From an uncultured bacterium (GTDB taxonomy: Bacteria > Patescibacteriota > Doudnabacteria > UBA920), in contig CAVVMJ010000005.1 of assembly GCA_963749445.1 (NCBI GenBank), positions 34,915 to 98,914 on the forward strand: 64,000 nt of DNA, in the 5' to 3' direction. The position numbers and the translations under genes were made by a program. The notes beneath the pieces were generated by a model. That model was not told where the DNA came from and ran no database searches. It saw nothing but the letters and a program-made list of their open reading frames with translations. Positions 10,509 through 28,594 of this stretch are shown piece after piece. Numbering within the stretch: the first letter of the stretch is position 1; each line of letters opens with the position of its first letter.

Positions 10509-11090
10509 ATGTTGCTTACGGTTTTTTTAATCGGCATGGGGTTGTTTGCCGTATTGATGCTTTTTGTAATCAGCAGTTCTTTTTTGGGGTTTCTGCTTAC
10601 GCGCGTCCCATTTGTGCCAACGTATAAAAGCGAGATTGAGTTTATTGTCAAAAAGCTCGGTATATCACCGGCCGACACCTTTTACGATCTCGGCAGCGGC
10701 GACGGCAAGGTGGTGTTTTTGGTCAATCGACTATCAGGCGCGCGGTGTGTGGGTTTTGAGCTCACTTGGTGGACGCACCTATTGGCAAAAATAAAAAAAT
10801 CAGGACTGCGGCTTTCTCCCCTCCTGAGGGGAGATGCCCGAGTGCAGCCGAGGGCAGAGAGGTTGCAATTCATCAACCGCAACTTTTTTAAGCAGACATG
10901 GTCAGAGGCAAATTATATCTATGGTTACCTCTACCCGCCCCTTATGGGCCGGGTGGAACAAAAGTTTCTGGCAGACTGCAAACCCGGCAGTATAGCTATT
11001 ATCCGCGACTTCCCCTTTCCCACTCTGAAACCCGCTGATATTTACCGAATGCCAAAAAAGCACGAGATTTATATTTATAAGAAATTGTAG
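10509..11090 (+). CDS. Class I SAM-dependent methyltransferase with N-terminal transmembrane helix. It carries an in-frame palindromic-repeat insertion
   Basis: The motif-I-like segment DLGSGDGKVV is present. A repeat copy at 10807..10866 is translated as ...SGLRLSPLLRGDARVQPRAERLQ... Confidence 0.55.
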   Translation: MLLTVFLIGMGLFAVLMLFVISSSFLGFLLTRVPFVPTYKSEIEFIVKKLGISPADTFYDLGSGDGKVVFLVNRLSGARCVGFELTWWTHLLAKIKKSGLRLSPLLRGDARVQPRAERLQFINRNFFKQTWSEANYIYGYLYPPLMGRVEQKFLADCKPGSIAIIRDFPFPTLKPADIYRMPKKHEIYIYKKL

Positions 11091-11208
11091 ACAAAAAGTT
11101 TATAAAATTTAATAAAATAGCTTATAAATATAAGCTATTTTTTATTTATCCACAAATGTGTAGAAAAAATCTTGACAGATAAACATTGAAGGTATATTAT
11201 CATCAAGT

Positions 11209-11961
11209 ATGGAAATTCAAGTAATCTTAAAGAATTTTGGCTTATCGGAGAAAGAGATAGCGGTTTATCTTGCTCTTATTGAATTGGGGCCTTCGTCGGT
11301 TAGGGAAATATCGGCCAAATCTAAGGTTAACCGCGGCACGACTTACGATATTTTAAAGTCGCTTATTGCTATCGGCATCGTCTCCTATTATAATAAGGAA
11401 TCTAAGCAGTATTTTATGGCCGAGGAACCGGAAAGGCTGCTTAGCGCGATTGACCAAAAAAAGGAAGACCTGGAAGAAGTCAGGGAAAGCGTGCGAGAGA
11501 ACCTTCCCCTAATAAAGACTTTGTTCGAAAAACAGGGCGGCAAGCCGGTGGTAAGGTTTTATGAGGGAGCCAAAGGCGTTAGGCAAATTTTTGAAGACGT
11601 TCTGGAAACAGTATCATTAGCGGCGGTTCGGTCGTATTACCTGTATTCCTCCGCCACTGCCGAAGACCGGAAAAATGTTTATGGCAGCATGCCGGACTTT
11701 AGCCAAAAACGGATTGCCAAAAAGATATCGGTAAAAATTATTTCCCTGGGCGAGGGCGGGCAGTTGGCGGGTTTGGATGAACGCAAACAAATGCCCATCG
11801 GCCAAAAAGATTTAAAGGCCACGCACGAAATAATTTACGCCGGCAAAGTCGCGCATATCGGTATTGATAACAATGAAGAGCCGGTCGGGGTGGTAATTCA
11901 GAACGACGAGATTTATAACATGCAGAAGGAAATATTTGAATATAATTGGAAAGAATTATAG
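11209..11961 (+). CDS. TrmB-family transcriptional regulator
   Basis: The N-terminal wHTH LSEKEIAVYLALIELGPSSVREISAKSKVNRGTTYDILKSL is TrmB-like, followed by a C-terminal effector domain. Confidence 0.6.
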   Translation: MEIQVILKNFGLSEKEIAVYLALIELGPSSVREISAKSKVNRGTTYDILKSLIAIGIVSYYNKESKQYFMAEEPERLLSAIDQKKEDLEEVRESVRENLPLIKTLFEKQGGKPVVRFYEGAKGVRQIFEDVLETVSLAAVRSYYLYSSATAEDRKNVYGSMPDFSQKRIAKKISVKIISLGEGGQLAGLDERKQMPIGQKDLKATHEIIYAGKVAHIGIDNNEEPVGVVIQNDEIYNMQKEIFEYNWKEL

Positions 11962-12033
11962 CGGCTAAGGGTTACGGGTATACAGATACTGCACAATCCG
12001 TATATTCGTAATAATCAGTAATCTCTAACCCAT

Positions 12034-13926
12034 ATGTGTGGCATAGTAGGTTATATCGGTAAAAAACAAGCTTTGCCAATCCTTTTGCAAGGATTGCGCG
12101 ATTTGGAATATCGCGGTTACGACAGTGCCGGGATAGCGGTTCTTGATGATGGAAAAATCGATAGAGTTCGCGAAGTCGGTAAAGTGGATATGTTGGTTAA
12201 AAAAATAAGTGAAATTGCGAGGAGTGCATCCGACGAAGCAATCCCGGCAAAGCACCCCGGGACTGCTTCGGCCGCACTCGCAGTTTCCATCCGCGGCACA
12301 ATCGGTATAGCCCACACGCGCTGGGCCACGCACGGCGGGGTGACCGAAGCAAACGCGCATCCGCACGTGGTCGGCAAGGGCAAGATGGCCTTGGTTCATA
12401 ACGGGATAATAGAAAATTACCGGGAAATAAAAAAACAGCTCAAAGACCAGAATTTAAAATCGGAAACCGACACCGAAGTTTTGGCGGAATTAATTTACGA
12501 AAACTATGACGGCGATTTAACGCAGGCCGTAAAAAAAGCGCTGCTAAAAGTCCGCGGCACGTACGGGATTTTGGTTTTGCACGCGGACCATCCCAACCAG
12601 CTGGTGGCCGCGCGCCTCGGGAGCCCTTTGTGCGTGGGAATCGGAGACGGGGAATTTTTTGTGGCCAGCGACGTTACGCCGCTGCTCCCCTACACCAAGC
12701 AGGTTACGTTTTTGGATGACGGCGAAATCGCCAACATTGGCAACGGCAACGGGTTAAAAATTACCAACCTAAAAGACGAAGTCATCATTAAAAATATTAC
12801 CCAAATAGACTGGGACAAGGCCAAGGCGCAAAAGGGCGGTTTTGAGCATTTTATGCTCAAGGAAATTTTTGACCAGCCCACAGTGTTTGAAGACGCCATC
12901 CGCGGCAGGCTGGATATGAACGAAGGCACGGCCAGGCTCGGCGGGTTGAATATGACGCCGGATCAGATGCGCGAAATAAAGAGGGTAATGATTATTGCCG
13001 AAGGCACGGCGCGGCATGCCGGGCTTATTGCCAAATACGCGTTTGAACGTTTGGCCAACCTGCCGACGGAAGTGGATTTTTCGTCCGAATTCCGTTATCG
13101 CGACCCGGTGGTCAATAAAAGCATGCTGGTATTCGTGATTTCTCAGTCCGGCGAAACCGCGGACACGTTAATGGCCGCGCGCGAGGCCAAACGCAAGGGC
13201 GCGGTTGTGCGCGGAATAATAAACGTGGTAGGTTCCACCATCGCGCGGGAAACCAAAGGCGGCACTTACATTCACGCCGGTCCCGAACTTGCCGTGGCCT
13301 CCACCAAGGCTTTTACCAATATGGTTGCGGTAATGATGTTGTATGCTTTGCAGTTCGGGCGGATTAAACACACTTCCGTGGCTACCGGCCAGCGGCTGCT
13401 CCAGGGGCTTTTGGAAATACCGGAAAAGATGAATTTAGTTCTAAAGCAGAACAACGGGATAAAAAAAATCGCCGACCAGTATCAGTCGTATAAAAATATT
13501 TTGTTTATGGGGCGAGGCATAAATTATCCGGTGGCTTTGGAAGGTGCATTGAAACTTAAGGAGATTTCTTATATTCATGCCGAAGGCTATGCCGGTGGGG
13601 AAATGAAGCACGGGCCATTGGCTTTGGTGAGTAAAGACGTGCCGGTGGTGGCGATTTTAAGCAAAGATCAGCTATACGAAAAAATGAAAAGTAGCATCCA
13701 GGAAGTCCGCGCCCGCGGCGCCCGCACTTTGATTATCGCTACAGCGGGAGATGATGAAGCCAAGGAAGTTGCGGACGAAATAATTTACGTTCCCGACACT
13801 ATGGAATTGCTTGAACCTTTGTTAAATACCATCCCCTTACAATTATTCGCCTACCACATCGCCGTCGTTTTAGGTAGAGACGTAGATCGCCCAAGAAATT
13901 TGGCCAAGAGCGTAACAGTTGAATAA
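12034..13926 (+). CDS. glmS: Glutamine--fructose-6-phosphate aminotransferase
   Basis: It starts MCGIVGY (N-terminal nucleophile Cys2) and has two SIS domains. The length is typical. Confidence 0.9.
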   Translation: MCGIVGYIGKKQALPILLQGLRDLEYRGYDSAGIAVLDDGKIDRVREVGKVDMLVKKISEIARSASDEAIPAKHPGTASAALAVSIRGTIGIAHTRWATHGGVTEANAHPHVVGKGKMALVHNGIIENYREIKKQLKDQNLKSETDTEVLAELIYENYDGDLTQAVKKALLKVRGTYGILVLHADHPNQLVAARLGSPLCVGIGDGEFFVASDVTPLLPYTKQVTFLDDGEIANIGNGNGLKITNLKDEVIIKNITQIDWDKAKAQKGGFEHFMLKEIFDQPTVFEDAIRGRLDMNEGTARLGGLNMTPDQMREIKRVMIIAEGTARHAGLIAKYAFERLANLPTEVDFSSEFRYRDPVVNKSMLVFVISQSGETADTLMAAREAKRKGAVVRGIINVVGSTIARETKGGTYIHAGPELAVASTKAFTNMVAVMMLYALQFGRIKHTSVATGQRLLQGLLEIPEKMNLVLKQNNGIKKIADQYQSYKNILFMGRGINYPVALEGALKLKEISYIHAEGYAGGEMKHGPLALVSKDVPVVAILSKDQLYEKMKSSIQEVRARGARTLIIATAGDDEAKEVADEIIYVPDTMELLEPLLNTIPLQLFAYHIAVVLGRDVDRPRNLAKSVTVE

Positions 13927-13932
13927 CCGCGG

Positions 13933-14075
13933 AGCTTTCTCCCCCTTCTTGTCCGCCGTAGCTTTAGCGAAGGAGGATGGGGGAGATGTCCCGAAGGGAC
14001 AGAGAGGGTGCAGTATGTAGTGCAGGCCCTCGGCCTGCCTGTAGCGCGCCGATCCCGTGTCAAGCACGGGACAAG
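13933..14075. repeat. Cluster of GC-rich palindromic elements (families 1 and 2 modules) between glmS and tdh
   Basis: TCTCCCCC...GGGGGAGATGTCCCGAAGGGACAGAGAGGGTG plus GTCCGCCGTAGCTTTAGCGAAGGAGG. The latter is the reverse complement of a block inside tdh at about 14985-15015. The cluster also spuriously extends the tdh ORF upstream. Confidence 0.5.
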
Positions 14076-14105
14076 TTTATCGGCCCCCCATTGATTAACT
14101 TTTTT

Positions 14106-15542
14106 ATGAAAGCATTAATATTTGATAAAAATAAAACCAACTGGGAAACCTCGCGCGGGTTTGAGTTGGTGGACGTGCCCGAGCCGGTTTTGGGTGTGGG
14201 AGATGAGGATAAAATTATTATCAAAGTCGCTTATGCCGGCGTGTGCGGTACGGATAAGGGGATTTGGAATAGGCAGGCGTTTAAGGACGCGGTGTTAAGT
14301 TCCATAGACGCGGAAGAAACGCGGAATTTAACGCGGAAAGATACGGAATCAAAAATTCCTGTCATTGCGAGTGCAGCCGAAGCAATCTTATCCAAGGAAA
14401 AGATTGCTTCGTCGGCTAGCCAAAGCCCTGGCCTCCTCGCAATGACACAGAAGAAAACCTACCGCATCATCGGCCACGAATTCTTCGGCGAAGTTAAGGA
14501 AGTTGGATCGTCAATAAAAAATATTAAGCCTGGAGACTTTGTGGCATGCGAGTCGCACGTGGTTTGCAATAAGTGCTACCAGTGTTTGCACGGGCAAAAG
14601 AATGTTTGCACTAATGAAAAAATACTTGGGATTTCGGTAGACGGCGGGTTTGCGGAATTTGCCAAAGTGCCGGCACAGGTTACGTGGAAAACCGATACTT
14701 CCAAAATCCGCCCCGAAGTGGCGGCCATGCAGGAACCTTTTGGCAACGCGGTGCACGCCGCAAGCAAAGTGGACGTAAAAGGAAAAACCGTCGCGATTTT
14801 TGGCCTGGGACCGATTGGAATGTTTTTAACTATCATTTTAAAAGGTCTGGGCGCGTCGTCAATAATCGGTATAGAGCCAAATCCCATTGCGGAAGATATG
14901 GCAAAGAAGTTGGGGATTGATTATGTAATTCCTTTGCGCACCACCCCGTCGGCTAACGCCGCCACCCCTCCCAAGCTCGGAGGGGAAGCTCCCGCCTTCG
15001 CTAAAGCTTCGGCGGACAAGCCGCGGTTATCCGCATCATCCGAAAAAGTGCGGAGCTTCTCCTCCTTGTTAAAGGAGGAGTACCCCGCGCAGCGGGGGGA
15101 GGTGGTTGGAGTTGATACAAAGCCTTACGCTCACAACCCCGCCGTCGCCGAAGAAATTAAAAAAATCACAGGCGGGTTGGGCGTTGACGTGGCGTTTGAA
15201 ATGGCCGGGTTTAATTCTTCGGTAAACAATGCCATCGCTTCCGTCAGGCGCGGCGGGGACGTAATTTTATTTGGTTTAAAGAACGGGGATTTTGTGTTTG
15301 AGGATTACAATCGTCTGGTTATGAAAGGTATTACTATGCACTGCGTAGCCGGTCGGCAGATTTGGCAGACCTGGGACATCACCAAATCGCTGATGGAAAA
15401 TGTTTCCAACGGCGTCCAGGAAAAACTTTTCAACGTTATTTTAGACCGCGGTCACGGGACAATCTTACCCATAGCCGATTATACAAAGGAAAAGTTTGAA
15501 GAGATGATGGTTAAACACCCTAAATTTTTATTACAATTTTAA
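14106..15542 (+). CDS. tdh: Zinc-dependent L-threonine 3-dehydrogenase-like alcohol dehydrogenase, with two in-frame repeat-element insertions
   Basis: The GHEFFGEV and Cys-rich structural zinc region (CESHVVCNKCYQCLHGQKNVC) are present, with the Rossmann GLGPIG. Insert 1 (14306..14445) and insert 2 (14938..15113) are palindromic elements translated in frame. The protein is about 480 aa versus the usual about 340. Confidence 0.7.
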   Translation: MKALIFDKNKTNWETSRGFELVDVPEPVLGVGDEDKIIIKVAYAGVCGTDKGIWNRQAFKDAVLSSIDAEETRNLTRKDTESKIPVIASAAEAILSKEKIASSASQSPGLLAMTQKKTYRIIGHEFFGEVKEVGSSIKNIKPGDFVACESHVVCNKCYQCLHGQKNVCTNEKILGISVDGGFAEFAKVPAQVTWKTDTSKIRPEVAAMQEPFGNAVHAASKVDVKGKTVAIFGLGPIGMFLTIILKGLGASSIIGIEPNPIAEDMAKKLGIDYVIPLRTTPSANAATPPKLGGEAPAFAKASADKPRLSASSEKVRSFSSLLKEEYPAQRGEVVGVDTKPYAHNPAVAEEIKKITGGLGVDVAFEMAGFNSSVNNAIASVRRGGDVILFGLKNGDFVFEDYNRLVMKGITMHCVAGRQIWQTWDITKSLMENVSNGVQEKLFNVILDRGHGTILPIADYTKEKFEEMMVKHPKFLLQF

Positions 15543-15550
15543 TTAATAAT

Positions 15551-15907
15551 ATGACAATAATTGGAAAAAGACCAGAAATTTTTGTTGTACCTGATCCAGA
15601 GTCAATAACGCCGAGGGCAATTTTAAAAATTAACCCAACGGCGGAGTCATTTTTAAGATCCCTGGGTGCCGAAATAACAGATAGTAAAATAATTTTAAAT
15701 CCGAAATCCGGAAACAATAGCTATCTTATTGCAAATATAGGATTTACTGACGCAGGCAAAGAAAGCGAGGTTGATCTTATTGAGGTAAAAATGAGGAATA
15801 AAAATTGTATTATAGTCTACAGACGTAATCGAGACACGAAAGGGATAATAGATGACAGGTATGAGTATGAACCAGAATCAGGATTATTTAAAAGAATAGA
15901 ATTTTAA
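15551..15907 (+). CDS. Hypothetical protein (AT-rich ORF inserted between tdh and kbl)
   Basis: 118 aa with no recognisable motif. Its local composition is much more AT-rich than the flanking genes. Confidence 0.3.
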   Translation: MTIIGKRPEIFVVPDPESITPRAILKINPTAESFLRSLGAEITDSKIILNPKSGNNSYLIANIGFTDAGKESEVDLIEVKMRNKNCIIVYRRNRDTKGIIDDRYEYEPESGLFKRIEF

Positions 15908-15918
15908 TTTTAATTTTT

Positions 15919-16479
15919 ATGTTTTTAAACTATAAAAAACAATTTGAAAATGAACTTAAAGAAATCCGTGACAGCGGAATGTGGAAAGATGTGGGGGTGC
16001 TGGAAGGAAAACAGGGGACGGAAGTCAAGATGGGCGGAAAGATTTTGCTGAATTTTTGCGCCAACAATTATCTTGGGCTCGCATCGTCAGACGAACTCGC
16101 GCAGGCGGCTATTGATGGCGTAAAAAAATATGGCTTCGGTGAGGCATCCGTTCGCTTTATAGTCGGTACGTCAACCATCCACAAAGATTTGGAAAGCGAG
16201 ATTTGCAAGTTTTTTGGCACGGAAGACGCGATTACTTATACTTCGTGCTTTGATGCGAATACGGGATTGTTTGAAACAATTTTAAAGGAAGGTGACGCGG
16301 TGTTTAGCGATGAGTTGAATCACGCATCAATAATCGACGGTATTAGGTTGTGCAAGGCGGAAAGGTTTAGGTATAAAAATTCGGAGATGGAAGATTTGGA
16401 GAGTAAACTCGTTGAGTTTACTTCGCGGAAAACGCGGAATCTGACGCGGGAGGACGCGGAAAGGAACCCCGGATGCTAA
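15919..16479 (+). CDS. kbl: 2-amino-3-ketobutyrate CoA ligase (glycine C-acetyltransferase), N-terminal part of a split gene
   Basis: The N-terminal AOS-family sequence is followed up to [12 protein letters not shown] repeat element (16424..16465, translated [14 protein letters not shown]) then leads to a stop. Confidence 0.65.
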
Positions 16480-17144
16480 TCGCGACTGACGGTGTGTTTT
16501 CTATGGATGGGATTACCGCTAAAGTAAAAGAAATTTGCGATTTGGCGGATAAATACGGGGCAATGGTTATGGTAGACGACAGCCACGCCAGCGGGGTGTT
16601 GGGAAAGCTCGGCCGGGGAAGCGTTGAAGGGTTAATGGACCGCGTGGATATTTTAACTTCAACTTTCGGCAAAGCCTTGGGTGGCGCCGGCGGCGGGTTT
16701 ACGGCCGGACGCAAGGAAATAATCCAGGTGCTTCACCAGCGCAGCCGCACGACTTTGTTCAGTAATTCTTTGCCGCCAATGATTGCCGCGGCCGCTTTGT
16801 TTGTTTTGCAGAATTTTGATAAGAAATTCATCAAGCTGACAAAACAATTACAGGAGAATACTGTTTATTTCAGGTCGAGGATGGAAAAATTGGGTTTCAA
16901 ACTCGGTGGAGACGGCAAACACGCGATTACGCCCGTGATGCTGATGGAAGAAAAATTGGCAACCGAAATGGCCGGCAAGTTATTTGCGGAAGGAATTTAC
17001 GTGCGTGGGTTCACTTATCCGGTAGTGCCCAAAGGAAAAGCGCGCATCCGCGTTCAGATATCGGCCGCGCACACTAAGGAACAAATGGACAAAGCCGCAG
17101 CCGCGTTTGCCGAAGTCGGGAAACAGATGGGGATTATTAAATAG
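16473..17144 (+). CDS. kbl: 2-amino-3-ketobutyrate CoA ligase, C-terminal part (PLP-lysine region), in a different frame
   Basis: It starts [13 protein letters not shown] and includes the [11 protein letters not shown]-binding lysine region. It overlaps the upstream part by 7 nt. AAAGGAA lies shortly upstream of its ATG. Confidence 0.65.
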
Positions 17145-17252
17145 TATGTAGTGTGCCGATCGATTGGTTTTAGTCTGCAGCCCTTCTCCCCCTTTGGGGG
17201 AGATGCCGAGTGCATCCGAGGCAGAGAAGGTGCAGTGTAGTCTGTTAATTTT

Positions 17253-19307
17253 ATGCAACTATCAGAATTCAAAAAATTATACCAAGCCTCCATTTCCGAC
17301 CCGGAAGGCTTTTGGGCGAAAACCGCATCGGAAGGAATCGAGTGGTCCAAAAAGTGGGACAAGGTTTTTGAATGGAATTACCCAAATTACCAATGGTTTT
17401 TGGGAGGCAAGTTAAACGTTACTTACAATTGTTTGGATAGGCATATTAAGGCGGGCTTGGGAGAAAAGATTGCCTATGTTTATACAAATGAAAATTATGA
17501 AAGAACAATTACCACGTATCGGGAATTACTTAGTCAGGTTAATAAGTTTGCAAACGGCTTGAAATCGCTCGGCGTAAAAAAGGGCGATAAGGTAGTTTTG
17601 TATATGCCGCTGGTAATTGAGCAGATTGTCGCCATGCTCGCCTGTGCGCGCATCGGCGCAATCCATAGCGTGGTGTTTGCGGGTTTTAGCGATAAAGCTT
17701 TGCGGGACAGAATTATCGATTTGCAGGCCAAAGTTATAGTTACTGCGACGTGGACATTGCGCCGCGGCGCGAAAAAAGAGTTAAAGTCCACGGTGGAAGA
17801 GGCGGTGAAGGGGTTGGGGTTTGTGGAGCGGGTAATTGTTTTGGATCGCGGTATAGAAAGTGTGAATTTTGCCATTCCGAGTGAGGCTTTAGCCGAGTCG
17901 AGGAATCTGCCAAATAAGGGAACGGATAGATCCCTCCACTCCTCCGCCTCCGCCAAGGCTATGGCGGACAAGTCGGATGCACTCGTCGGTCGGGAGGGTA
18001 CTAATAAAGAAATTGATTATCATCAGCTTATCGTAAACCAAAACGAAACCTGCGAACCGGAAATAATGGATAGCGAGGATGTTTTGTTTATCCTGTACAC
18101 TTCCGGCTCCACCGGCAAGCCCAAAGGCATTGTCCATACAACCGGCGGCTACAGCATTTACGCGCATTATACTACAAAAAAGGTATTTGATTTAAAATCA
18201 GCTGACATCTTTTGGTGCACTGCTGATCCCGGCTGGATAACCGGCCACAGCTATTTGGTTTACGGGCCGCTCTCCAACGGTTTGAGATCGGTCATCGCCG
18301 AAGGAGTGCCGGACTACCCAACACCGGACCATTGGTATAAAATTATAGAACAGGAAAAAGTCACTGTTTTTTATACTTCGCCGACGGCCATTAGAATGCT
18401 CCGCAAATACGGCGAGCGGCATCCCAAAAAACACAATCTAGCTTCCTTAAGGATTTTAGGCACGGTCGGTGAACCCATTAACCCTGAAGTCTGGCAATGG
18501 TATAATCAATATATCGGAAACGGCAAGTGCCCCATAGTTGACACCTGGTGGCAAACCGAAACCGGCGGGCAAATGATAACCACTTTTCCCGGTTTGCCGC
18601 AAAAACCCGGAATTGCGGGTTTACCGTTTTTTGGGATAGAAGCGGAAGTGGTAAACAAAGAAGGTAAAAGCGTGCCCGCGGGAGAAAAAGGATTTTTAAT
18701 TATCAAAAAACCCTGGCCCGGAGCTTTGCGGAATTGTTTGAATGACGCTGGTCGGTTTAATCAATATTGGAATGAAATCAAAGGCGTCTACCCCCACACC
18801 AATAAGTTGGGGTACGAAAGTCCGGCTGATAATTATCAATCAGAGACTAATCAAAAATTAAAGAGCATACAAAACGGTTATGGTGTGGGGGTGTATTTTA
18901 CCGGCGACTTTGCCATTAAGGACAAAGACGGCTATATCCAAATTTTGGGAAGATCGGACGACGTGATAAATATTTCCGGGCACCGGATAGGGACCGCGGA
19001 AGTTGAGAACGCGCTGGTATCGCATAAGGATGTTTCCGAGGCTGCGGTTATTGCCAAACCCGATGAGATTAAAGGCGAAAAGATCAAGGCGTTTATAGTG
19101 CTTAAAGCATCTGTTTTGGCCGATGAAGGGCTGATTAAAGACATTAAGCGGCATATGCGCCGCGAAATCGCGGCCATGGCCGTGCCAGACGAAATTGAAT
19201 TTGTGGATGCGCTGCCCAAAACCCGTAGCGGAAAAATAATGAGGAGAGTGCTTAAGGCAAAAGAATTGGGGTTAGGCACCGGAGATTTGTCGGTGCTAGA
19301 CAGGTAG
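17253..19307 (+). CDS. acs: Acetyl-CoA synthetase (AMP-forming), with an in-frame palindromic insertion
   Basis: YTSGSTGKPKG AMP-binding motif and C-terminal SGKIMRR. An insert at 17931..17998 is translated ...DRSLHSSASAKAMADKSDALVGREG... Confidence 0.85.
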   Translation: MQLSEFKKLYQASISDPEGFWAKTASEGIEWSKKWDKVFEWNYPNYQWFLGGKLNVTYNCLDRHIKAGLGEKIAYVYTNENYERTITTYRELLSQVNKFANGLKSLGVKKGDKVVLYMPLVIEQIVAMLACARIGAIHSVVFAGFSDKALRDRIIDLQAKVIVTATWTLRRGAKKELKSTVEEAVKGLGFVERVIVLDRGIESVNFAIPSEALAESRNLPNKGTDRSLHSSASAKAMADKSDALVGREGTNKEIDYHQLIVNQNETCEPEIMDSEDVLFILYTSGSTGKPKGIVHTTGGYSIYAHYTTKKVFDLKSADIFWCTADPGWITGHSYLVYGPLSNGLRSVIAEGVPDYPTPDHWYKIIEQEKVTVFYTSPTAIRMLRKYGERHPKKHNLASLRILGTVGEPINPEVWQWYNQYIGNGKCPIVDTWWQTETGGQMITTFPGLPQKPGIAGLPFFGIEAEVVNKEGKSVPAGEKGFLIIKKPWPGALRNCLNDAGRFNQYWNEIKGVYPHTNKLGYESPADNYQSETNQKLKSIQNGYGVGVYFTGDFAIKDKDGYIQILGRSDDVINISGHRIGTAEVENALVSHKDVSEAAVIAKPDEIKGEKIKAFIVLKASVLADEGLIKDIKRHMRREIAAMAVPDEIEFVDALPKTRSGKIMRRVLKAKELGLGTGDLSVLDR

Positions 19308-19426: not shown

Positions 19427-20401
19427 ATGAAGAATATAATCATAATAGGCGGGGGGACAGGTACTTTTACTTTATTGTCCGGCTTGCGTAAATATCCATC
19501 CAATAATACGGTAATTGTTAGCAGCGCAGATGATGGCGGCAGTACCGGCATCTTGCGCAAAGAATTGGGCGTGTTTCCGCCCGGGGACATCCGCCAGTGC
19601 CTGGTGGGGCTGTCTTATACCCAGACGGAAATGCAAAAATTGTTTAATTTTCGGTTTGACAAGGGATCGCTCGCTGGGCATACCGCGGGCAATATCATTA
19701 TTGCGGCTCTGGAAAAAATTACCGGCAGCGTGGATTCGGCCATAGAAATCGCGTCCAAAATGCTTAACGTGCGCGGCCGGGTTTTACCGGTAACACTTAA
19801 GCCAGCGCTTTTGTCCGCGGAATTAATCAACGGCAAAAAAATAAGCGGCGAGCATAATATAGACGTAAGACAAAAGCGGCCAAAAATAAAAAGCATTTCC
19901 CTAAAGCCATCCGGGCCAGTTAACCCCAAAGTTTTAAAGGCTTTGGAGGCGGCTGACGCTTTGGTTTTAGGACCGGGGGATTTATATACCAGCATTTTGC
20001 CTAGCTTATTGGTAAGCGGAATTAAGCGTGCCATAGACAGTTCCAAGGCAAAAATAATAATGGTTACAAATATTGTAACCACTCCGGGACAAACCGAAAG
20101 TTTTGGTCCTGCGGATTTTGCGGAAGTGTTAAACAGCCACTTGGGACAAAAAAAATTGGATACTCTGGTGGTAAACACCAAAAAGCCCGCAGCTTTGGCT
20201 CTGGCGGCTTATAAAAAAGAGGGCGCAAAATTTGTTGTGCCGGACGCCGGCGCCGTACGGGGGACTAAAGTCATTTTAGGGGATTTACTGAGCGCCACGG
20301 TGCATAAAAAAGCAAAAGGTGATAAATTAAATACCAGGAGCTTTCTCCGCCACGACAACAACAAGCTGGCGAACGTTATTTGGAAAACGATTAATAATTG
20401 A
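19427..20401 (+). CDS. CofD/YvcK (UPF0052) family protein
   Basis: The N-terminal IIIGGGTGTFTLLSGL and overall architecture match the 2-phospho-L-lactate transferase / gluconeogenesis factor family. Confidence 0.65.
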   Translation: MKNIIIIGGGTGTFTLLSGLRKYPSNNTVIVSSADDGGSTGILRKELGVFPPGDIRQCLVGLSYTQTEMQKLFNFRFDKGSLAGHTAGNIIIAALEKITGSVDSAIEIASKMLNVRGRVLPVTLKPALLSAELINGKKISGEHNIDVRQKRPKIKSISLKPSGPVNPKVLKALEAADALVLGPGDLYTSILPSLLVSGIKRAIDSSKAKIIMVTNIVTTPGQTESFGPADFAEVLNSHLGQKKLDTLVVNTKKPAALALAAYKKEGAKFVVPDAGAVRGTKVILGDLLSATVHKKAKGDKLNTRSFLRHDNNKLANVIWKTINN

Positions 20402-20404: not shown

Positions 20405-20431
20405 TAGTGTCAAGGGTGACCCTTGACACTA
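20405..20431. repeat. Second copy of the 27-bp perfect palindrome TAGTGTCAAGGGTGACCCTTGACACTA
   Basis: Identical half-sites to 4133..4161. It lies 4 nt after the stop of the preceding gene. Confidence 0.5.
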
Positions 20432-20826: not shown

Positions 20827-20911
20827 ATCACAGATAGAACGCAAATAGCGCAAATATCGCAGTTCGCGATTAGCGCAATCGGCGATATCAGCGATTAATC
20901 AGCTATCTTAT

Positions 20912-21649: not shown

Positions 21650-21660
21650 CGTTAACACGG

Positions 21661-21775
21661 ATTTACTGATTCATCACGGATCAACGGATGCCTACGGATT
21701 CTGAATATCGGCATCCGTAGGAATCGGTAGATCCGCATCTTGTCCGTAGATCCGTGTTAGACAGACCGGTGGATA
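21661..21775. repeat. MITE-like imperfect palindrome built from TAACACGGAT / ACGGAT / CCGTAG units
   Basis: TTAACACGGATTTAC...GTAGATCCGTGTTAG outer arms. A related element with TTAACACGGAT direct repeats lies at 30455..30560. Confidence 0.45.
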
Positions 21776-21814
21776 TCATACTTTAATTTGCCTTAAACAA
21801 GGCATTTTTTATTG

Positions 21815-21847: not shown

Positions 21848-22154
21848 ATATGAAACGGGAGTTTGAGGTCTGCGTTATAAAAGGCAGGTGTGGGAGTCAA
21901 AAACAAAATATTTTCGACCCCGCCATCTGCCTTTTTACACCTTAGTGGCAAGTTGAGGGAGCAAAAAATTGCTGTCATTCCGGAACCCCCCTGTAGGGGG
22001 ATATCCGGAATCTAGATTACCACTTTCACGGAAACGATAAGCATTTTTACTTCCTCAAATTGCCGCTGGTTTGTCCCAGCAGCAAGAGTTCATTCCAAAC
22101 AAAGTAACGGGGGATGGATGTAGTAAAAAATACAACACAGGGAGAATCTAACAG

Positions 22155-23423: not shown

Positions 23424-23754
23424 TTGGCCAACCTTTTTGACCCTGTATAGTAGTTGCATGGTGGCGGGGAAATTGCTGTTAGTCTGCAGACCAGCAACTC
23501 CCCGCCCGCCATCCTTAAAATAAAATTCCGGTCAGCGGTGGGGCCATAGTTTAATTACTAAGGCTCCGCCGTTGTTCGGAAAAAGAGTTTTTGATTTTTA
23601 AGCAACTTTGTGGTATGATATTGTCATACTTGGTGTGATAAGCGAATTGTTCCTTGCAAAATCAGCCGTAAAATTTTTAGGACTAATTTTGCAGGGTGGA
23701 AATCCCTGTGTGGCGGGGTCAAACCCGCCATGAACCTGTAATTGAGGTGTAAGA

Positions 23755-23976
23755 ATGAGTGCAACGACCCATGCAGGTGCAGCAGCCGCCGAACCTGGTG
23801 CGGCTATCGGGCCGCCCCAAGGGGCGGCGGCAAACAACGCGGCGGAAACGCCGCAAGACAAGGGGGGCTACAAAATCGCCGGGATTGACTTTGACATCCC
23901 GTGGGCCCAGTTTGGGGGGTTCCCCAACGAGGCCGCAAGGGCGATTTATTACGGAGGTGCGTTAGCGCCGAGTTAG
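23755..23976 (+). CDS. Small hypothetical protein (Ala/Gly-rich), GC-rich
   Basis: 73-aa ORF with GAGGTG 7 nt upstream of the ATG. It is preceded by a GTATGAT-containing motif. Confidence 0.3.
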   Translation: MSATTHAGAAAAEPGAAIGPPQGAAANNAAETPQDKGGYKIAGIDFDIPWAQFGGFPNEAARAIYYGGALAPS

Positions 23977-24341
23977 GAGCCGTGGTACGGTTCTCGCGAG
24001 GGCACCACGTCTCGCCTGACCGAAGGCGCTTGTAATGCGCCCCGATGTTGTGCTGAAGGCCGGTTTATCCGAGTTTAGTTCGCGGGCATTCCTCCACCCG
24101 CAGCTATTCGTTCCAAGGAGACTTCCGGCCTTCTCCTTTTTTATTTGTGTTTACCAAAATTAAAAAGTATGATAAAGTATGATAGGCGATACTGATTAGA
24201 TAGACTGTCAACAATAAGATGAATTTGCGAGGAGCCAGGGCTTTATCTGGCGACGAAGCAATCCCGTTAATTTAGGGGATTGCCACGCCCCTCTCTGCAT
24301 CGGGGCTCGCAATTTCCATCGGTTTTGAAGAGAAAATTTAA

Positions 24342-25190
24342 ATGAATCGTGAAAGGCTGACAATTACATTACGGTCGGATTTACTGGAAGCTTTGGATGC
24401 CAGCATTGACGGCGAGAGGTTAAGGAACCGCAGCCATGGCATTGAGTATTATTTGTCGCGCAGCTTGGGAGCCCGCGCGGTTAAGGTTTTAATTTTGGCC
24501 GGTGGCAAGCCGGTGTATTTTGATAGCGAAAAAAAGGTTTTGCCCAAAGCTATGGTCAAAATCGCGCACAAGCCTTTGCTTGAGCAGACTCTGCGCCGCC
24601 TTAAGGCTTCCAAATTCAGCGAAGTAATAATTTCCATTGGCGAAGGCGGGGAAATCATCCAAAATTATTTTGGCGACGGAAGCAGTCTGGGTCTAAAAAT
24701 AAGTTATTTGGAACAGAACGGCAGCAAATCGGGAAATGCCCAGCCTTTGCTCCAGGCAAAAAACAGTATGGGCAGCGGTCAGTTTTTGCTGCTTTACGGT
24801 GACGTGTTAAGCGATATAGATTATAACGATTTTGTGGAATTCCATCGTTTGCAAAAGCCTTCGGTCTGCACCATGGCGCTGACCAGCACCGAGGCGGTCA
24901 ATATGTGGGGCTTGGCCCGGCTGCAGGGCAACCGCGTGGTGGAGTTTGAGGAAAAACCCAAAAACCCCAAAACTTTTTCGCGGCTGATTAACGCCGGAAT
25001 TTATATGATGGAGCCGGAAATTTTTAAATTTATTACCCCAAGCGCCCATAAGTTGGAAAGCAATGTCTTTCCCCGCCTGGCCGAGGAAGGCAAACTGTTT
25101 GGCTATCCATACGAAGGTTTGTGGCTGGATATTTCCAACAGCGCGGCATATCGGCAAGCAGTCAAGGAAATTTCTAATGGTAAGTATTAA
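24342..25190 (+). CDS. Ribbon-helix-helix (CopG-like) domain fused to a sugar-1-phosphate nucleotidyltransferase
   Basis: The N-terminus MNRERLTITLRSDLLEALD is RHH-like, followed by a VLILAGGKPVY nucleotidyltransferase fold. Confidence 0.6.
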   Translation: MNRERLTITLRSDLLEALDASIDGERLRNRSHGIEYYLSRSLGARAVKVLILAGGKPVYFDSEKKVLPKAMVKIAHKPLLEQTLRRLKASKFSEVIISIGEGGEIIQNYFGDGSSLGLKISYLEQNGSKSGNAQPLLQAKNSMGSGQFLLLYGDVLSDIDYNDFVEFHRLQKPSVCTMALTSTEAVNMWGLARLQGNRVVEFEEKPKNPKTFSRLINAGIYMMEPEIFKFITPSAHKLESNVFPRLAEEGKLFGYPYEGLWLDISNSAAYRQAVKEISNGKY

Positions 25191-25284
25191 GAATCAAGAA
25201 TTTAGTATTAAGAATTTATTAAGCTCTTAATTCTTAATACATGCTTCTTAACACTTTGATTATAGATTATTAATATTTTAAACT

Positions 25285-26313
25285 ATGCCCAAACAACCAT
25301 CCAAAACCAAAATCGCCTTAAACGGCCTCGGAAGAATCGGCCGGATTTTTTTGCGGCAAGCTTGGAACAACCCGCATTTTGAAATTGCGGCTCTGCATTC
25401 CAGGAGCGGTTTGGAGATGTACGCGCACTTGCTCAAATACGATTCCATCTATGGCATTTGGGACAAAGATGTGAGCGTCAAAGGTAATAATCTGATCATC
25501 GAAGGGAAAAAATTTCCGTTTGTCTCGGACGAGGACGGCAAGTTGCCCTGGAAAAAACTTAAAATTGACGCCGTGGTGGATGCCACGGGCCGCTATACCA
25601 AAAAACAGGACGCCATGACGCATTTGGACCAAGGGGCGCGTTTTATGGTCTGCACCGCGCCCATGTCGGATCCGGACGAAACTTTTGTCTTTGCCGCCAA
25701 CCATAAAAAGTTTGACCCGGCTGTCCACAAAATTGTTTCCGCCGGCTCCTGTACCACGGTCTGCAGTACTTTGACCTTAAAAGTTTTGGAAGAAACTTTC
25801 GGCGTGGAGCAGGCGTTCATCAACACGGTGCACGCGTATACCGGCGACCAGATGCTGCTGGACGGTTCGCACAAGGATTTGCGCCGGGCCCGAGCGGCCA
25901 CGCAGTCTATCATCCCGACTTCCAGCGGCGTGTCCAAAACCATTGTGGGTTTGTACCCGCACTTAAAAGGCAAAATTGACGCGCTGGCTTTGCGCGTACC
26001 GATTCCCGATCCGTCCGTGGTGGTGCTGTCCGCGATCTTAAAAAAAACGGTGAGCATGGATAAATTAAAAACCGCCTTTACCAAGGCGGCCCAGGGCGAA
26101 CTCAAAAACCATTTAGCGGTTAGCAGCTTGCCTTTGGTTTCCATTGATTTTAAAGGCAACACCAATGGAGCCACGGTGGATTTGTATTCCAGTTCCGTGG
26201 TCAACAGCCACTTGGTTAACATTTTGTCGTGGTATGATAACGAATGGGGCTATGTGCGGCAAACGGTTTATTTGTTGGAATATTTGGCCAAAAAAATGGC
26301 CCAATCAAAATAG
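25285..26313 (+). CDS. gap: Glyceraldehyde-3-phosphate dehydrogenase family
   Basis: LNGLGRIGR NAD-binding start and the catalytic SAGSCTT cysteine region. Confidence 0.75.
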   Translation: MPKQPSKTKIALNGLGRIGRIFLRQAWNNPHFEIAALHSRSGLEMYAHLLKYDSIYGIWDKDVSVKGNNLIIEGKKFPFVSDEDGKLPWKKLKIDAVVDATGRYTKKQDAMTHLDQGARFMVCTAPMSDPDETFVFAANHKKFDPAVHKIVSAGSCTTVCSTLTLKVLEETFGVEQAFINTVHAYTGDQMLLDGSHKDLRRARAATQSIIPTSSGVSKTIVGLYPHLKGKIDALALRVPIPDPSVVVLSAILKKTVSMDKLKTAFTKAAQGELKNHLAVSSLPLVSIDFKGNTNGATVDLYSSSVVNSHLVNILSWYDNEWGYVRQTVYLLEYLAKKMAQSK

Positions 26314-26327
26314 TTTTAAAAAAGCCG

Positions 26328-27116
26328 TCAAATAATGATGGCTTTTTTAAATTCCTTAATCATTTGTCCGTGGATGCGGCCGTTGCTGGCTAGGAATGAT
26401 TTGGAATCTATGGTCAAACTTTTTCCATCCAGCTGCGTTACCCTCCCGCCCGCCTCTGCGACAATCAGCGCCGCAGCCGCGAAATCCCAGACGTTAATTT
26501 CGCTTTGGATGTGAAAATCAAATACGCCCATGGCGGTAAAGCACATTTCCAGCGTGGCCGAACCCAGCGTCCGGATTTTATGCAGCAGCGGCAGGAGCCT
26601 GGGGAAATTAACTTGCGCTTTGTGAATATTGCGGCCCCAGCCAAAGCCCCCGAAGGCCAGCTTTAAGGATTTTTTTGAAGAGACTTTCAGGCGCCGGCCG
26701 TTTAAAAAGGCACCCTGGCCTTTGGCGGCGCTAAACAGCTGCCCGAGCACCGGGTTATAGACTACCGCGGCCAGAGGGGTTTCACTTTGCCATAGAGCAA
26801 TGGAAACGCAGCACAAAGGCAACCCTTGTATGTAGTTGGTCGTGCCATCTATGGGGTCGATAATCCAGATTAGGTCGTTTTTAGAAATTTGCTGGCCGCC
26901 AAATTCCTCGCCGATTATTTTATGGTTTGGAAACCGCTTTAAAATAGTTTTTCTGATTTGGGTTTCTATTTGACGATCGATTTCGGTGACCAGGTTCCGC
27001 GGATCGTTGTTCTTGATTTGGACATCTTTGGGCTTGCCAAAAGACGCTTTAAAAATTTTTCCCGCCGTCTTGGCCGCAGAGAGCGCGACTTTTAGGTATT
27101 TTTGGTTGGAAGCCAT
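26328..27116 (-). CDS. Inositol monophosphatase / FBPase family (SuhB-like)
   Basis: WIIDPIDGTTNY metal-binding motif. Confidence 0.8.
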   Translation of the reverse strand: MASNQKYLKVALSAAKTAGKIFKASFGKPKDVQIKNNDPRNLVTEIDRQIETQIRKTILKRFPNHKIIGEEFGGQQISKNDLIWIIDPIDGTTNYIQGLPLCCVSIALWQSETPLAAVVYNPVLGQLFSAAKGQGAFLNGRRLKVSSKKSLKLAFGGFGWGRNIHKAQVNFPRLLPLLHKIRTLGSATLEMCFTAMGVFDFHIQSEINVWDFAAAALIVAEAGGRVTQLDGKSLTIDSKSFLASNGRIHGQMIKEFKKAIII

Positions 27117-27157
27117 ATCAGATATTATAGCTTAAATAGTGCTATAATACCATAGTT

Positions 27158-28594
27158 ATGAGAATTATCGCTGATTTACAAATCCATTCAAAGTATAGCA
27201 GGGCCTGCTCGCAGGATTTAAATCCTGCAAATATCGGGCTGTGGGCGGATAAAAAAGGCATTGGGATTGTGGGCACCGGGGATTTTACGCATCCTAAGTG
27301 GCTTTTGGAATTGAAGGAAAATTTGGAAGAGGCGAAACCGGGGCTGTATCGGCTGCGATCAAGCAACCTCTCCTCAACCCTCCCCTCAAAAGGGGAGGGG
27401 GTTCCGCGAGCGATGTTTATGCTTACCGCGGAGGTCTCCTCGATTTATAAACAGGGTGACAAGGTGCGGCGGGTGCATAATGTGATTTTCGCGCCGAACT
27501 TTGCGGCGGTTGACCGCATTATCAGCGGTTTGGAAAAGGCGGGCGCCAACCTAAAAGCCGACGGCCGGCCGATTATGGGCGTGCATTGCGACACTTTGGT
27601 TAAGATTGTGAAAGAAGCTTCATCAGAGGCAGAGGTTATCCCAGCTCACGCCTGGACGCCGCATTTTGGGCTGTTTGGCTCTTTATCAGGATTTGATTCC
27701 ATAGAGGAAGCTTTTGGCGACCAGTCAAAATATATATTTGCCATTGAGACCGGGCTGTCATCTGATCCAAAAATGAATTGGCAAATTTCTAAGCTGGACA
27801 ACATCACTTTGGTGTCCAATTCCGACGCGCACAGTTTGCGGAAAATCGGCAGGGAAGCCAATGTGTTTGAAGTTGACGAGAAAAAATTGTCTTATGCGGA
27901 AATTATCCGCATCATTAAAAATAAAGACCCGAAAGAGTTTTTGTTTACCATTGAATTTTTTCCCGAAGAAGGCAAGTACCATTTGGACGGCCACGCGGAC
28001 TGTAAGTTTAGCTGTCAGCCGAGCCAGACAAAGAAATTGAAAGGCATTTGTCCGGTCTGCGGCAAGAAACTGCTGGTCGGGGTGCTGTCGCGCGTTGATG
28101 ATTTGGCCGATCGCGAGTTTGGCTTTATTCCGCCGCGGGCCATTCCTTACAAGAGTGTGATTCCTTTGGAAGAAATTATTGCGGAAACTTTGGGGGTTGG
28201 GGTACAGAGCAAAAAGGTGATGGCGATGTATGAGCAAATGGTTAAACGTACCACCCCGTCTGCTATCGCAGACACCCCTCCTATTGTAGGAGGGGAGGCT
28301 CCGCAGTTATCCTTGGATGACACGCGGAGCTCTCCTCCTGGAACAGGAGGAGTACCCGCCGAAGGCGGGGGAGGTGGTAGACTTTATGGCGAATTTGCCA
28401 TTCTTTTGGAAATGCCTGAGGACCAAATCGCCCGAATATCATCAGCTGACATAGCAGCCTCCATCCTCCGCGTCCGCAGCGGCCAAGTCCGCGTGGAAGG
28501 CGGCTACGACGGGGTGTTTGGTAAAATTCACTTATTTGAAGAAGGTGAACGGGAAAAGATCCTTAAAAAGCCCAAGCAGGCTAGTTTGTTTTAA
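27158..28594 (+). CDS. PHP-domain endonuclease Q-like protein, with two in-frame palindromic insertions
   Basis: DLQIHSKYSRACS, GTGDFTHP, PAHAWTPHFG, SNSDAHS, GKYHLDGH and a CPVCGKK zinc ribbon match EndoQ architecture. Inserts lie at 27366..27410 and 28251..28379. Confidence 0.55.
   Translation: MRIIADLQIHSKYSRACSQDLNPANIGLWADKKGIGIVGTGDFTHPKWLLELKENLEEAKPGLYRLRSSNLSSTLPSKGEGVPRAMFMLTAEVSSIYKQGDKVRRVHNVIFAPNFAAVDRIISGLEKAGANLKADGRPIMGVHCDTLVKIVKEASSEAEVIPAHAWTPHFGLFGSLSGFDSIEEAFGDQSKYIFAIETGLSSDPKMNWQISKLDNITLVSNSDAHSLRKIGREANVFEVDEKKLSYAEIIRIIKNKDPKEFLFTIEFFPEEGKYHLDGHADCKFSCQPSQTKKLKGICPVCGKKLLVGVLSRVDDLADREFGFIPPRAIPYKSVIPLEEIIAETLGVGVQSKKVMAMYEQMVKRTTPSAIADTPPIVGGEAPQLSLDDTRSSPPGTGGVPAEGGGGGRLYGEFAILLEMPEDQIARISSADIAASILRVRSGQVRVEGGYDGVFGKIHLFEEGEREKILKKPKQASLF

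Follow-up and report, generated by a model that had tools for sequence, protein, structure and literature searches.

The window analysed here is a stretch of 64 kb (64,000 nucleotides) from a Doudnabacteria-like Patescibacteria genome, of which it covers only a part. The 23S-5S rRNA operon lies at 5-10.5 kb. Within 10-30 kb, the plus strand carries the genes for a DOT1-like methyltransferase and a TrmB-like regulator, glmS, tdh, kbl, acs, others, the gene for an EndoQ homologue, and that for pyruvate kinase; this gene order is kept in related species. At least seven families of short repeats, labelled M1-M7, occur in the window, with copies in spacers and in genes. The repeat-bearing genes are those of the DOT1-like methyltransferase and the EndoQ homologue (two sites), glmS, tdh (two sites), kbl, acs, and pyrD, and there are at least ten genic copies within the window alone. 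With a probability of about 0.8, these extra segments are several families of short, GC-rich, hairpin-forming, non-autonomous modules, which behave like the Rickettsia palindromic elements (RPEs) and spread at the DNA level. The modules range in size from 25 to 170 nt: copies of M4 have 111-171 nt, and those of the other families 25-90 nt.

An earlier reading of the sequence (the original prediction) had described four of these families, M1 to M4, as palindromic repeats inserted in frame in tdh, acs, and the genes of the EndoQ homologue and the methyltransferase. All of these segments are present, with coordinates right to within a few bases, and the translations of the open reading frames (ORFs) agree that the frame stays open across every listed insert. 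The copies named were all real, but those in glmS, kbl, and pyrD, and possibly also one in the pyruvate kinase gene, had been missed. The features are collected in Table 1.

Table 1. Repeat modules of the window, with their positions and settings
Module	Position	Strand	Setting and properties
M1	10807-10866	+	In frame in the DOT1-like methyltransferase gene (10509-11090); reads 'LRLSPLLRGDARVQPRAERLQ'; pattern match
M1	10030-10132		23S-5S spacer; M6 nested in the first hairpin's loop; local fold -40 kcal/mol
M1	13934-14013		glmS-tdh spacer; M5 nested in the first hairpin's loop; further hairpins to ~14090
M1	17175-17235		kbl-acs spacer; simple copy, nothing nested
M2	14306-14352	+	tdh loop 1, in frame; roughly four 12-nt units that have diverged, beginning on the native codons for 'IDAE', GACGCGGAA
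M2	16421-16470	+	kbl; reading frame changes at the 3' end of the repeat
M3	14361-14447	+	tdh loop 1, in frame; reads 'VIASAAEAILSKEKIASSASQSPGLLAMT'; pairs with the reverse complement of spacer 4166-4232
M3-type palindrome, 78 nt	12211-12288	+	glmS, in frame; reads 'EIARSASDEAIPAKHPGTASAALAVS'
M3	4167-4308		Non-coding, spacer upstream of the 23S rRNA gene; extra hairpins inside
M3	24223-24316		Non-coding; 24225-24263 is 90% identical to 4171-4209
M4, 171 nt	14940-15110	+	tdh loop 2, in frame; M5 hairpin nested at 14992-15020
M4, 129 nt	28250-28378	+	EndoQ homologue, site 2, in frame; reads 'TTPSAIADTPPIVGGEAPQLSLDDTRSSPPGTGGVPAEGGGGG'
M5, solo hairpin	4604-4628		Non-coding; inverted repeat, fold z -3.2
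M6	42195-42243	+	pyrD, in frame; reads 'PFDRAQGRLERSRDGG'; 85% identical to 10054-10093
M6b-like hairpin, 27 nt	28996-29022	+	Possible insertion; reversed module inside the pyruvate kinase gene ('RGPSTSLGAG'); 81% complementary to 10076-10102
M7 hairpin (CCCTCCCCT-CAAA-AGGGGAGGG)	27366-27410	+	EndoQ homologue, site 1, in frame
M7-type hairpin	36469-36499		Non-coding, just upstream of dnaG
Cluster downstream of pyrD	42503-42595		Non-coding; 16-mer CGACGAGTGCATCCGA at 42514-42529 (+) and M6-like hairpins
Composite acs insert	17870-17998	+	M5-like hairpin at 17949-17968 and reversed 16-mer CGACGAGTGCATCCGA at 17973-17988 (-)

The families are recognised by recurring sequence patterns, the expected counts of which were taken from dinucleotide shuffles. 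The pattern of M1 is TCTCCCC..GGGGAGATG..GAGAGGGTG, found in four copies; its core gives two exact matches against 0.00 expected, and in the remaining two copies the first loop is enlarged by a nested second module. M2 is a tandem of ACGCGGAA with a 12-nt unit, and its tdh and kbl copies are 81% identical over 32 nt. The core of M3 (GTCATTGCGAG..GACGAAGCAATC..CTCGCAATGAC) has five matches against 0.33 expected. The tdh and EndoQ copies of M4, with the pattern ACCACCCCGTC..GGGGGAGGTGGT, pair by self-BLAST with E values of 1e-8 and 2e-5. M5 is the sequence CCGCCTTCGCTAAAGCTTCGGCGGA, present as three identical 13-mers at 4613, 13961, and 14995 (minus strand). The claim that one core occurs in both orientations holds for the 16-mer CGACGAGTGCATCCGA, which stands on the plus strand downstream of pyrD and reversed within acs; with near-copies at 12218 and 17204 it gives four matches against 0.19 expected. 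The self-BLAST pairs among the window modules have E values from 1e-8 to 1e-3, and the members of a family align as DNA across unrelated genes and spacers. For the hairpin in the pyruvate kinase gene, the match to the Pfam PK model shows no net length excess; its status as an insertion is only possible.

Modules are also found inside other modules. M5 is nested within M4 and M1, and M6 within M1 (10054-10098), while un-nested copies of these families coexist in the window. The simple M1 copy at 17175 and the M1 copies carrying M5 or M6 serve as the empty and filled versions of one nesting site.

When the folding energies were compared with those of shuffled sequences, strong folds were obtained for M4 (EndoQ copy, -86.3 kcal/mol, z -9.5) and M3 (tdh copy, -44.8 kcal/mol, z -8.1), and also for the glmS copy (z -5.9) and M5. 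In a sliding-window scan of the 64 kb (70 nt per window), the predicted elements ranked among the most stable folds, and inserts in tdh from other species have folding energies of -50 to -70 kcal/mol. Palindromy had been predicted for all four families; it is strong for M3 and M4 and modest for M1, but M2 is a 12-nt tandem repeat and is not palindromic (z -1.4 and -1.5 for two copies). The acs insert, which had been named as a palindromic element, does carry the reversed 16-mer, but the segment as a whole is not significantly palindromic (z -0.2). It is a weakly palindromic composite.

Alignment of the two M4 copies of the window at the nucleotide level shows a 30-nt block that is extra in the tdh copy, and this block is M5. 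In addition, a 2-nt indel between the copies shifts the frame of the 3' half, which reads 'RSSPPGTGGVPAEGGGGG' in EndoQ and 'SSLLKEEYPAQRGEVVG' in tdh. In other loci, M4 reads 'NHPVTLR' (L086, third frame) or, reversed, 'TTSPLRGTPP' (L084), and overall the genic copies use three forward frames plus the reverse orientation. A conserved, non-palindromic peptide, as expected of an ordinary domain, is therefore not what the copies have in common, and the evidence points to the modules as DNA entities and not peptide domains.

Low-complexity linkers or loop expansions of the ordinary lineage-specific kind, evolving at the protein level, might also give such segments, the similarity of the DNA being a by-product of composition. 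The peptides are indeed rich in Ala, Ser, Pro, Gly, and Arg, they are located in loops and disorder is predicted for them, and some inserts are common to related species at one site, such as M7 in the EndoQ genes of the window and of L001, its nearest relative (GlmS 85.6% identical; Tdh 72% identical). However, identical modules are present in non-coding spacers and in the rRNA operon, the stems of the hairpins covary, and the segments show 70-92% DNA identity between unrelated proteins with differing host genes. Together with the reading of one nucleotide sequence in several frames and reversed among hosts, this makes an origin at the protein level highly improbable.

The corresponding sites were compared in about 20-23 Patescibacteria species, where the flanks were located in the raw DNA by short conserved peptide anchors, independently of ORF calls. 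In these orthologues, the inserts of the window are absent or are swapped for other modules at the same loops. At the glmS site, 17 of 21 loci have the basal length (111 nt), among them L001; the excess is 69 nt in the window and 108 nt in L002, a more distant species. Three of the five methyltransferase loci (L002, L003, and L004) have an empty site, which is filled differently in L001 and L005. The kbl site is basal (105 nt) in ten loci; elsewhere it has 114-210 nt, and every length save that of the window is a multiple of three. The four anchors of tdh always share one frame, and the spacing at site 1 runs from a minimum of 90 nt to 225 nt, always in multiples of three. The host frame is thus kept, with a length divisible by three and no stop, in all 21 loci of glmS, 20 of the 21 of kbl, and about 20 of 20 of tdh site 1. 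M2 is absent from P0002, a Tdh orthologue with 74% identity.

The content of a filled loop changes between relatives. Window and L001 hold different modules at tdh sites 1 and 2, at the kbl site, and at EndoQ site 2, whereas the M7 insert at EndoQ site 1 is common to both (87% identical DNA) and the L001 methyltransferase site retains just the 3' end of M1. M3 is at the same glmS codon position in the window and L002, while L001 has the ancestral loop. In orthologous membrane proteins, one site holds a complete M4 in L086 and an M1/M4 chimera in L174. The spacer copy of M1 in the window (17175-17243) is 92% identical over 50 nt to a reversed copy within the tdh gene of L001. When the window modules were searched by BLASTN-short and nhmmer against 23 Patescibacteria tdh loci, few copies were found, because the families differ between species. 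Among 120 Tdh orthologues of 373-478 aa, nearly all length variation is at two loops. Recurring peptides in these loops are 'VIAS..LAMT', 'TTPSA..GGGGG' or '..EEYPA.RGEVVG', 'TRNLTRKDAE', 'NPSL.KEG..PLL.KERLGEV', and tandems of 'SKQQTA', and one peptide module can fill site 1 in some species and site 2 in others. Such turnover at fixed sites points to insertion hot spots, most simply to an existing hairpin that draws further insertions.

The solved structures 5zb8, 2d8a, 8rpk, and 4amv all lack the segments. In the EndoQ homologue, residues ~55-75 and 363-410 are unaligned or in a gap against PfuEndoQ (5zb8), and site 2 falls between residues 330 and 335 of that structure. The Tdh inserts fall between residues 52 and 57 (site 1) and 217 and 224 (site 2) of 2d8a. 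Residues 198-265 of Acs are without alignment to 8rpk, and residues ~58-83 of GlmS fall in a gap against 4amv of Escherichia coli. An AlphaFold model of Tdh from the window has confident domains and gives both inserts (residues 76-115 and 281-341) as coil, with a predicted local distance difference test score (pLDDT) below 50; the model is mediocre overall (mean pLDDT 66.7), with a third low-confidence stretch at 150-180 outside the inserts. The solved Acs structures also lack a second segment of the window protein, 'PHTNKLGYESPADNYQSETNQKLKSIQNGYGVG' (18792-18890; residues ~514-546), which is not GC-rich and is unlike any module. It should be mentioned that the longest ORF of tdh starts at 13977 solely through stop-free palindromes in the spacer (M1 and others), and the real start is the ATG at 14106 (MKALIFDK...); spacer repeats without stops in the tdh frame thus lead to falsely extended ORF calls.

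The kbl gene of the window is read as two ORFs (15919-16479 and 16473-17144), with the break at the 3' end of the M2 copy. The segment at this site has 143 nt (mod 3 = 2), and one more A in the run GGAAAGG, at the end of M2, would restore the frame. Frameshifts are seen in other genes of the window too, at least five in ppsA (the phosphoenolpyruvate synthase gene, 31783-34266) and one in pyrD (~42040), and these lie away from any repeat. The frameshifted ppsA, pyrD, and kbl (at 16458-16475) are either pseudogenes or products of assembly indels. The break in kbl was considered as evidence of splicing and rejected, being a 1-nt change in a run of A in a window where ppsA and pyrD are frameshifted away from repeats. 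We read it as decay or an assembly indel, not as removal of the repeat.

The segments might be removed after transcription or translation, by a new small structured intron, by excision of the RNase III type with re-ligation, or as mini-inteins, to leave a mature enzyme of normal length. Loss of frame in kbl precisely at the end of a repeat would suit such a process, as would the tolerance of the 23S rRNA gene of this genome for introns and insertions and the functional RNA-like design of M4, with its compact multi-hairpin fold, an invariant closing stem of 8 bp, boxes, and covarying hairpins. Removal would free the segments in length and in stop codons, yet lengths divisible by three and freedom from stops are seen for the inserts at all tdh and glmS loci and at 20 of 21 kbl loci, a constraint that makes removal at the RNA level unlikely. 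Moreover, non-coding copies of M4 are often without an open frame, the modules have no match in Rfam even at E values up to 1, and the segments are too short for inteins and are without intein motifs. With the break in kbl explained by the A-run and by frameshifts elsewhere, removal is considered very unlikely.

The same frameshifts, and the fact that repeats are classic sites of mis-assembly, could be taken to suggest chimeras or mis-joins in a metagenome-assembled genome. The same families, however, are at the same loops in dozens of independent assemblies from NCBI, JGI, and ENA. The inserts keep the frame, and chimeric joins would not give nested, covarying hairpins. The chance that the modules are artefacts of assembly is negligible.

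A different question is whether the repeats were made in place by replication slippage and template switching, and not by insertion. M2 speaks for this: in tdh it begins on the native GAC-GCG-GAA ('IDAE') and continues with a 12-nt period, and in kbl it begins on the native TTCGCGG ('EFTSR'). Long hairpins with tandem arms of 7-8 nt at 5763-5886, 6613-6696, and 38274-38396 are also of a kind that slippage would produce. Slippage cannot explain M1, M3, M4, M5, and M6, long specific sequences that turn up again, with invariant boxes, in spacers, unrelated genes, and other genomes. As an account of the modules in general, formation in place is rather unlikely.

Two of these long hairpins, at 5763-5886 and 6613-6696, are palindromes within the 23S rRNA gene with arms of 7-nt tandem units. 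The third, between dnaG and rpoD, has arms of ACAAAT.. tandem repeats with an 8-nt period, and a further long hairpin at 21653-21759 has arms of ACGGAT units; the periodic-arm design of the latter two matches that of the palindromes in the 23S gene. In-frame counterparts in other species are the tandems of 'SKQQTA' or 'NQLISKS' type in Tdh loops.

M4 was followed beyond the related species. Public metagenome contigs were scanned with the exact pattern of the 3' hairpin only, and at least 120 loci were obtained. An nhmmer model built from the two window copies recognised 24 full-length elements among the loci listed, and about ten of these are inside long ORFs. The full-length copies outside ORFs are non-coding, four of them without any open frame; when fragments are included, 20 hits are within long ORFs and 60 outside, again among the matches listed. 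The host genes are varied. The gamma subunit of ATP synthase (AtpG) has two copies and an M1-like module. GrpE and a membrane protein each have M4 in two species, and DNA polymerase I (PolA) has it at the same linker position in two species with the 3' half in different frames. A methyltransferase and 5-formyltetrahydrofolate cyclo-ligase (MTHFS) are further hosts.

Peptide searches were less productive. A HMMER search of the 43-aa M4 peptide against 1.84 billion representatives gave two hits, of which the true one is the tRNA-dihydrouridine synthase Dus P0121 with two M4 copies. The second hit, a eukaryotic protein with thrombospondin type-1 (TSP1) repeats, was a false positive. A word-indexed protein search with the same peptide, which needs three shared 5-mers, found nothing. 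Short biased peptides are poor probes, and the DNA pattern scan is far better.

Several of the non-coding copies are on contigs of ~40% GC that encode sigma-54, hybrid sensor kinases, the 67-kDa signal peptide peptidase SppA, and glycanases. Proteins typical of bacteria with large genomes, outside the candidate phyla radiation (CPR), were recognised on these contigs by NCBIfam. The contigs are not from Patescibacteria; Bacteroidota are suspected. The M4 family, judged by these gene contents, is accordingly distributed beyond the CPR. Two contigs of non-CPR appearance have in-frame cases: a half-M4 in a GT2 glycosyltransferase gene (L113:796-925, 'TNHPVRFASTPPQEGNG') and an ACGAAT-type tandem in RsmH (L162, 'NYELRITNYDLRF'). 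They indicate that in-frame repeat insertion extends beyond Patescibacteria. Carriage of M4 by phages was considered and is unsupported, as there were two matches in 2.9 million viral contigs.

The anatomy of M4 was derived from a 19-copy alignment (A2), in which the 3' boxes are fixed by the search pattern; the 5' boxes are not, and yet are invariant. The element is bounded by an 8-bp closing stem, ACCACCCC...GGGG(A)GGTGGT, invariant in all 19 copies. From 5' to 3', the order is closing stem, hairpin P1, box hairpin CCCCTCC-loop-GGAGGGGAA, a variable centre, box hairpin TCTCCTCC-loop-GGAGGAGTACCC, hairpin P5, and GGGGGAGGTGGT; the four invariant boxes are ACCACCCCG, those of the two box hairpins, and GGGGGAGGTGGT. 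The centre is a GC-rich hairpin in genic copies and AT-rich in many non-coding copies. All 19 copies form hairpins P1 and P5, for each of which eight or more distinct stem sequences occur, and for P5 RNAalifold gives six to seven double-sided changes at each of three pairs. The whole is roughly two-fold symmetric, like the ends of MITEs (miniature transposable elements with inverted repeats), and the flanks often prolong the inverted repeat by 2-4 nt. Rfam searches, at gathering thresholds and at E values up to 1, gave no hit that overlaps a module; the hits are confined to rRNA, tRNA, three group I introns, LOOT, and two matches that are weak and unrelated.

Invariant boxes in very different genomes would also be expected if the hairpins were recognised by a protein and kept for a host function, as terminators, stabilisers of mRNA 3' ends, RNase sites of the rRNA operon, or binding sites of nucleoid or repair proteins. 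The genic copies would then be tolerated spill-over or translational pause sites between domains. Many spacer copies are right after stop codons or between convergently used genes (glmS/tdh, kbl/acs, 23S/5S), and genic copies are found at domain boundaries, for instance in the PolA linker and between the EndoQ domains. The copies are without the T-run of intrinsic terminators, however, close relatives do well with empty sites, and the rapid replacement of families at a single site speaks against a site-specific function. A host function, which is compatible with mobility, seems quite improbable as the reason why the modules are kept.

The reading favoured here, that of mobile DNA modules, can be put as a sequence of steps. 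Modules would insert, or be copied, into spacers, into the loops of other modules, and into genes. In essential genes, selection would retain those insertions that preserve the frame, bring no stop codon into it, and lie in surface loops or linkers able to tolerate them, and translation of the surviving copies would give disordered loops with much Ala, Ser, Pro, Gly, and Arg. A loop holding a module might then be remodelled by nesting, replacement, and formation of chimeras, and this continued remodelling would explain why orthologues hold different modules at the same two or three sites. The invariance of the M4 boxes across very different genomes implies a sequence-specific trans-acting factor. 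Nesting in hairpin loops suggests single-stranded or hairpin DNA as the target, as for HUH/Y1 enzymes of the RAYT (REP-associated tyrosine transposase, REP standing for repetitive extragenic palindromic) or IS200/IS605 type. The targeting of hairpin loops and the apparent absence of a target-site duplication would fit such a single-strand enzyme; none was identified.

Several points weigh against this interpretation. The folds of M1 (z -2.4), M7 (z -2.0), and M6 (z -1.7) are modest, and M2 and the periodic-arm hairpins may have grown by local slippage, not by insertion. No direct repeats were seen in the 12-nt flanks of 26 M4 copies. No autonomous partner or transposase was found, and mobility thus rests on the distribution of the modules. 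A long version of M4 with a transposase was looked for in ~2.1 Mb of loci, a small sample, in which one pair of 5' and 3' ends lies 260-4000 nt apart and encloses ordinary genes; a parent insertion sequence (IS) with matching ends was not found in 863 kb around M4 copies. There is no recurring neighbour gene either, since only syntenic pairs resulted when the 150 ORFs lying within 2.5 kb of M4 copies were compared with one another by BLASTP. Translation of the inserts is presumed from frame conservation, and a structure of -86 kcal/mol in a coding region is expected to hinder ribosomes. Distinct modules recurring at one codon position are unlike random insertion, so that the hot-spot assumption is needed. 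Finally, the filled and empty sites compared are too diverged to give an exact pair at nucleotide resolution.

A bolder proposal is that M4-type modules are cross-phylum structured mobile elements, with boxes read by a widespread, undescribed machinery that homes to hairpin loops and resident elements. This is clearly unlikely on the present evidence. If it were true, such a machinery would make particular surface loops of conserved Patescibacteria enzymes hypervariable cassettes. In a more radical version, the element would be removed at the RNA level from part of the transcript pool.

The part of the window at 45000-64000, which has none of the GC-rich modules M1-M7, resembles a foreign island. 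It has a type III restriction-modification system (49088-54552), a LOOT RNA (54616-54739), and 106-nt inverted repeats at 54543-54648 and 61893-61998. A large serine recombinase gene (59908-61545) abuts a minus-strand group I intron (61540-61793), and two repeats like tRNA 3' ends are at 61492-61516 and 61582-61606. The 23S rRNA gene (5037-9996) has 4960 nt, compared with 2925 nt for the model, and holds a group I intron (9272-9522) and a weaker group I match (8393-8574). A perfect palindrome of 27 nt, TAGTGTCAAGGGTSACCCWTGACACTA, occurs twice (4134-4160 and 20405-20431), each time immediately after a stop codon (of ligA and of the gene at 19427-20401), and might serve to terminate transcription or to bind a protein. 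Of all local folds in the window, the most stable, down to -46 kcal/mol per 70 nt, is in a GC-rich region at 23436-24045 between an aminotransferase gene and the gene at 24342. This region is without an Rfam match and might represent a structured RNA that lacks annotation, or the GC-rich beginning of a gene.

RPEs are interspersed palindromic repeats of 100-150 bp in the intergenic and coding regions of Rickettsia (PMC1779305), and their genic copies are often fused in frame (PMC10969869). RPE-1 to RPE-10 were described by Ogata et al. in 2000 and 2002, as summarised in PMC10969869 and PMC1779305. Both RPEs and the present modules are interspersed palindromes of several families, found in spacers and in frame in unrelated housekeeping genes of a small-genome bacterium. 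In both, the extra peptide segments, the translation of which is inferred here, are compatible with the fold, and neither has a known mobilising enzyme. M4, with 111-171 nt and both intergenic and genic copies, is within the size range of RPEs. The present modules differ in being from an unrelated lineage, Patescibacteria, and in their GC-rich, apparently unrelated sequences; Rfam contains no RPE family. Most of them are shorter (25-90 nt) and nest into composites, and a single loop is reused, with different families filling it in related species. M4 is also in contigs of quite different, large-genome bacteria, whereas RPEs occur in Rickettsiales only. The comparison with RPEs made in the original prediction is therefore apt for the behaviour of the modules, which appears to match, but it is an analogy and gives no membership of the Rickettsia families.

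Bacterial MITEs with occasional translational fusions include ERIC, BOX, Nezha, and other cyanobacterial MITEs (PMC10969869). The present modules are likewise short and non-autonomous, with stable folds and terminal inverted repeats (ACCACC...GGTGGT in M4; the 11-nt ends GTCATTGCGAG...CTCGCAATGAC in M3), but no target-site duplication was seen and no parent IS was found in the 863 kb around M4 copies, and in-frame genic copies are far more frequent. In the 2024 review of MITEs, RPEs are still the outstanding case, and Patescibacteria are not mentioned. The modules also share features with REP elements and REPINs: they are short, imperfect, GC-rich palindromes in many copies and composite clusters, with hairpin DNA as the likely substrate and with spacer copies at gene 3' ends. 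An extragenic location is part of the definition of REP elements, and REPs, bacterial interspersed mosaic elements (BIMEs), and REPINs are mobilised by RAYT transposases (Y1 HUH), the gene of which is usually flanked by REPs. With at least ten genic copies in the window, the modules are frequently genic and fall outside the extragenic definition. No RAYT or Y1 transposase was recognised in the ORF lists of the window, scanned in part against Pfam, or beside the copies, a search that covers a small part of the genome.

The modules further appear to resemble the GC clusters of yeast mitochondria and the double-hairpin elements of Allomyces. Such GC-rich palindromes of organelles are hairpin modules in a lower-GC genome, in spacers, rRNA genes, and in-frame coding sites, and they nest as well. 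They differ in being organellar, the present ones being on a bacterial chromosome, and there is no sequence relationship. Palindromes of Volvox (PMC2670323) and coding palindromes of Nematomorpha (PMC6649704) belong to the same organellar group.

As the original prediction had supposed, such modules do not appear to be a described feature of the CPR: no description was found by topic or by literal sequence in the literature searched, most subscription journals being outside its scope. Coding palindromes have hitherto been treated as a peculiarity of Rickettsia, and the same behaviour is now seen in Patescibacteria, a large share of bacterial diversity, where the phenomenon looks pervasive. Tdh orthologues vary by up to 100 aa at two loops, supplied from a common stock of DNA modules. 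In annotation, protein-length statistics, alignments, and phylogenies of the CPR, the segments need to be masked. Genic copies inflate the counts of "low-complexity" or "disordered" regions, and spacer copies upstream of genes falsely lengthen ORFs. The modules are also a natural experiment on the tolerance of enzyme loops to insertion, and their presence or absence provides markers for strain tracking. Finally, the conserved boxes of M4 in very different bacteria are a lead to a mobilisation system with a shared trans-acting factor.

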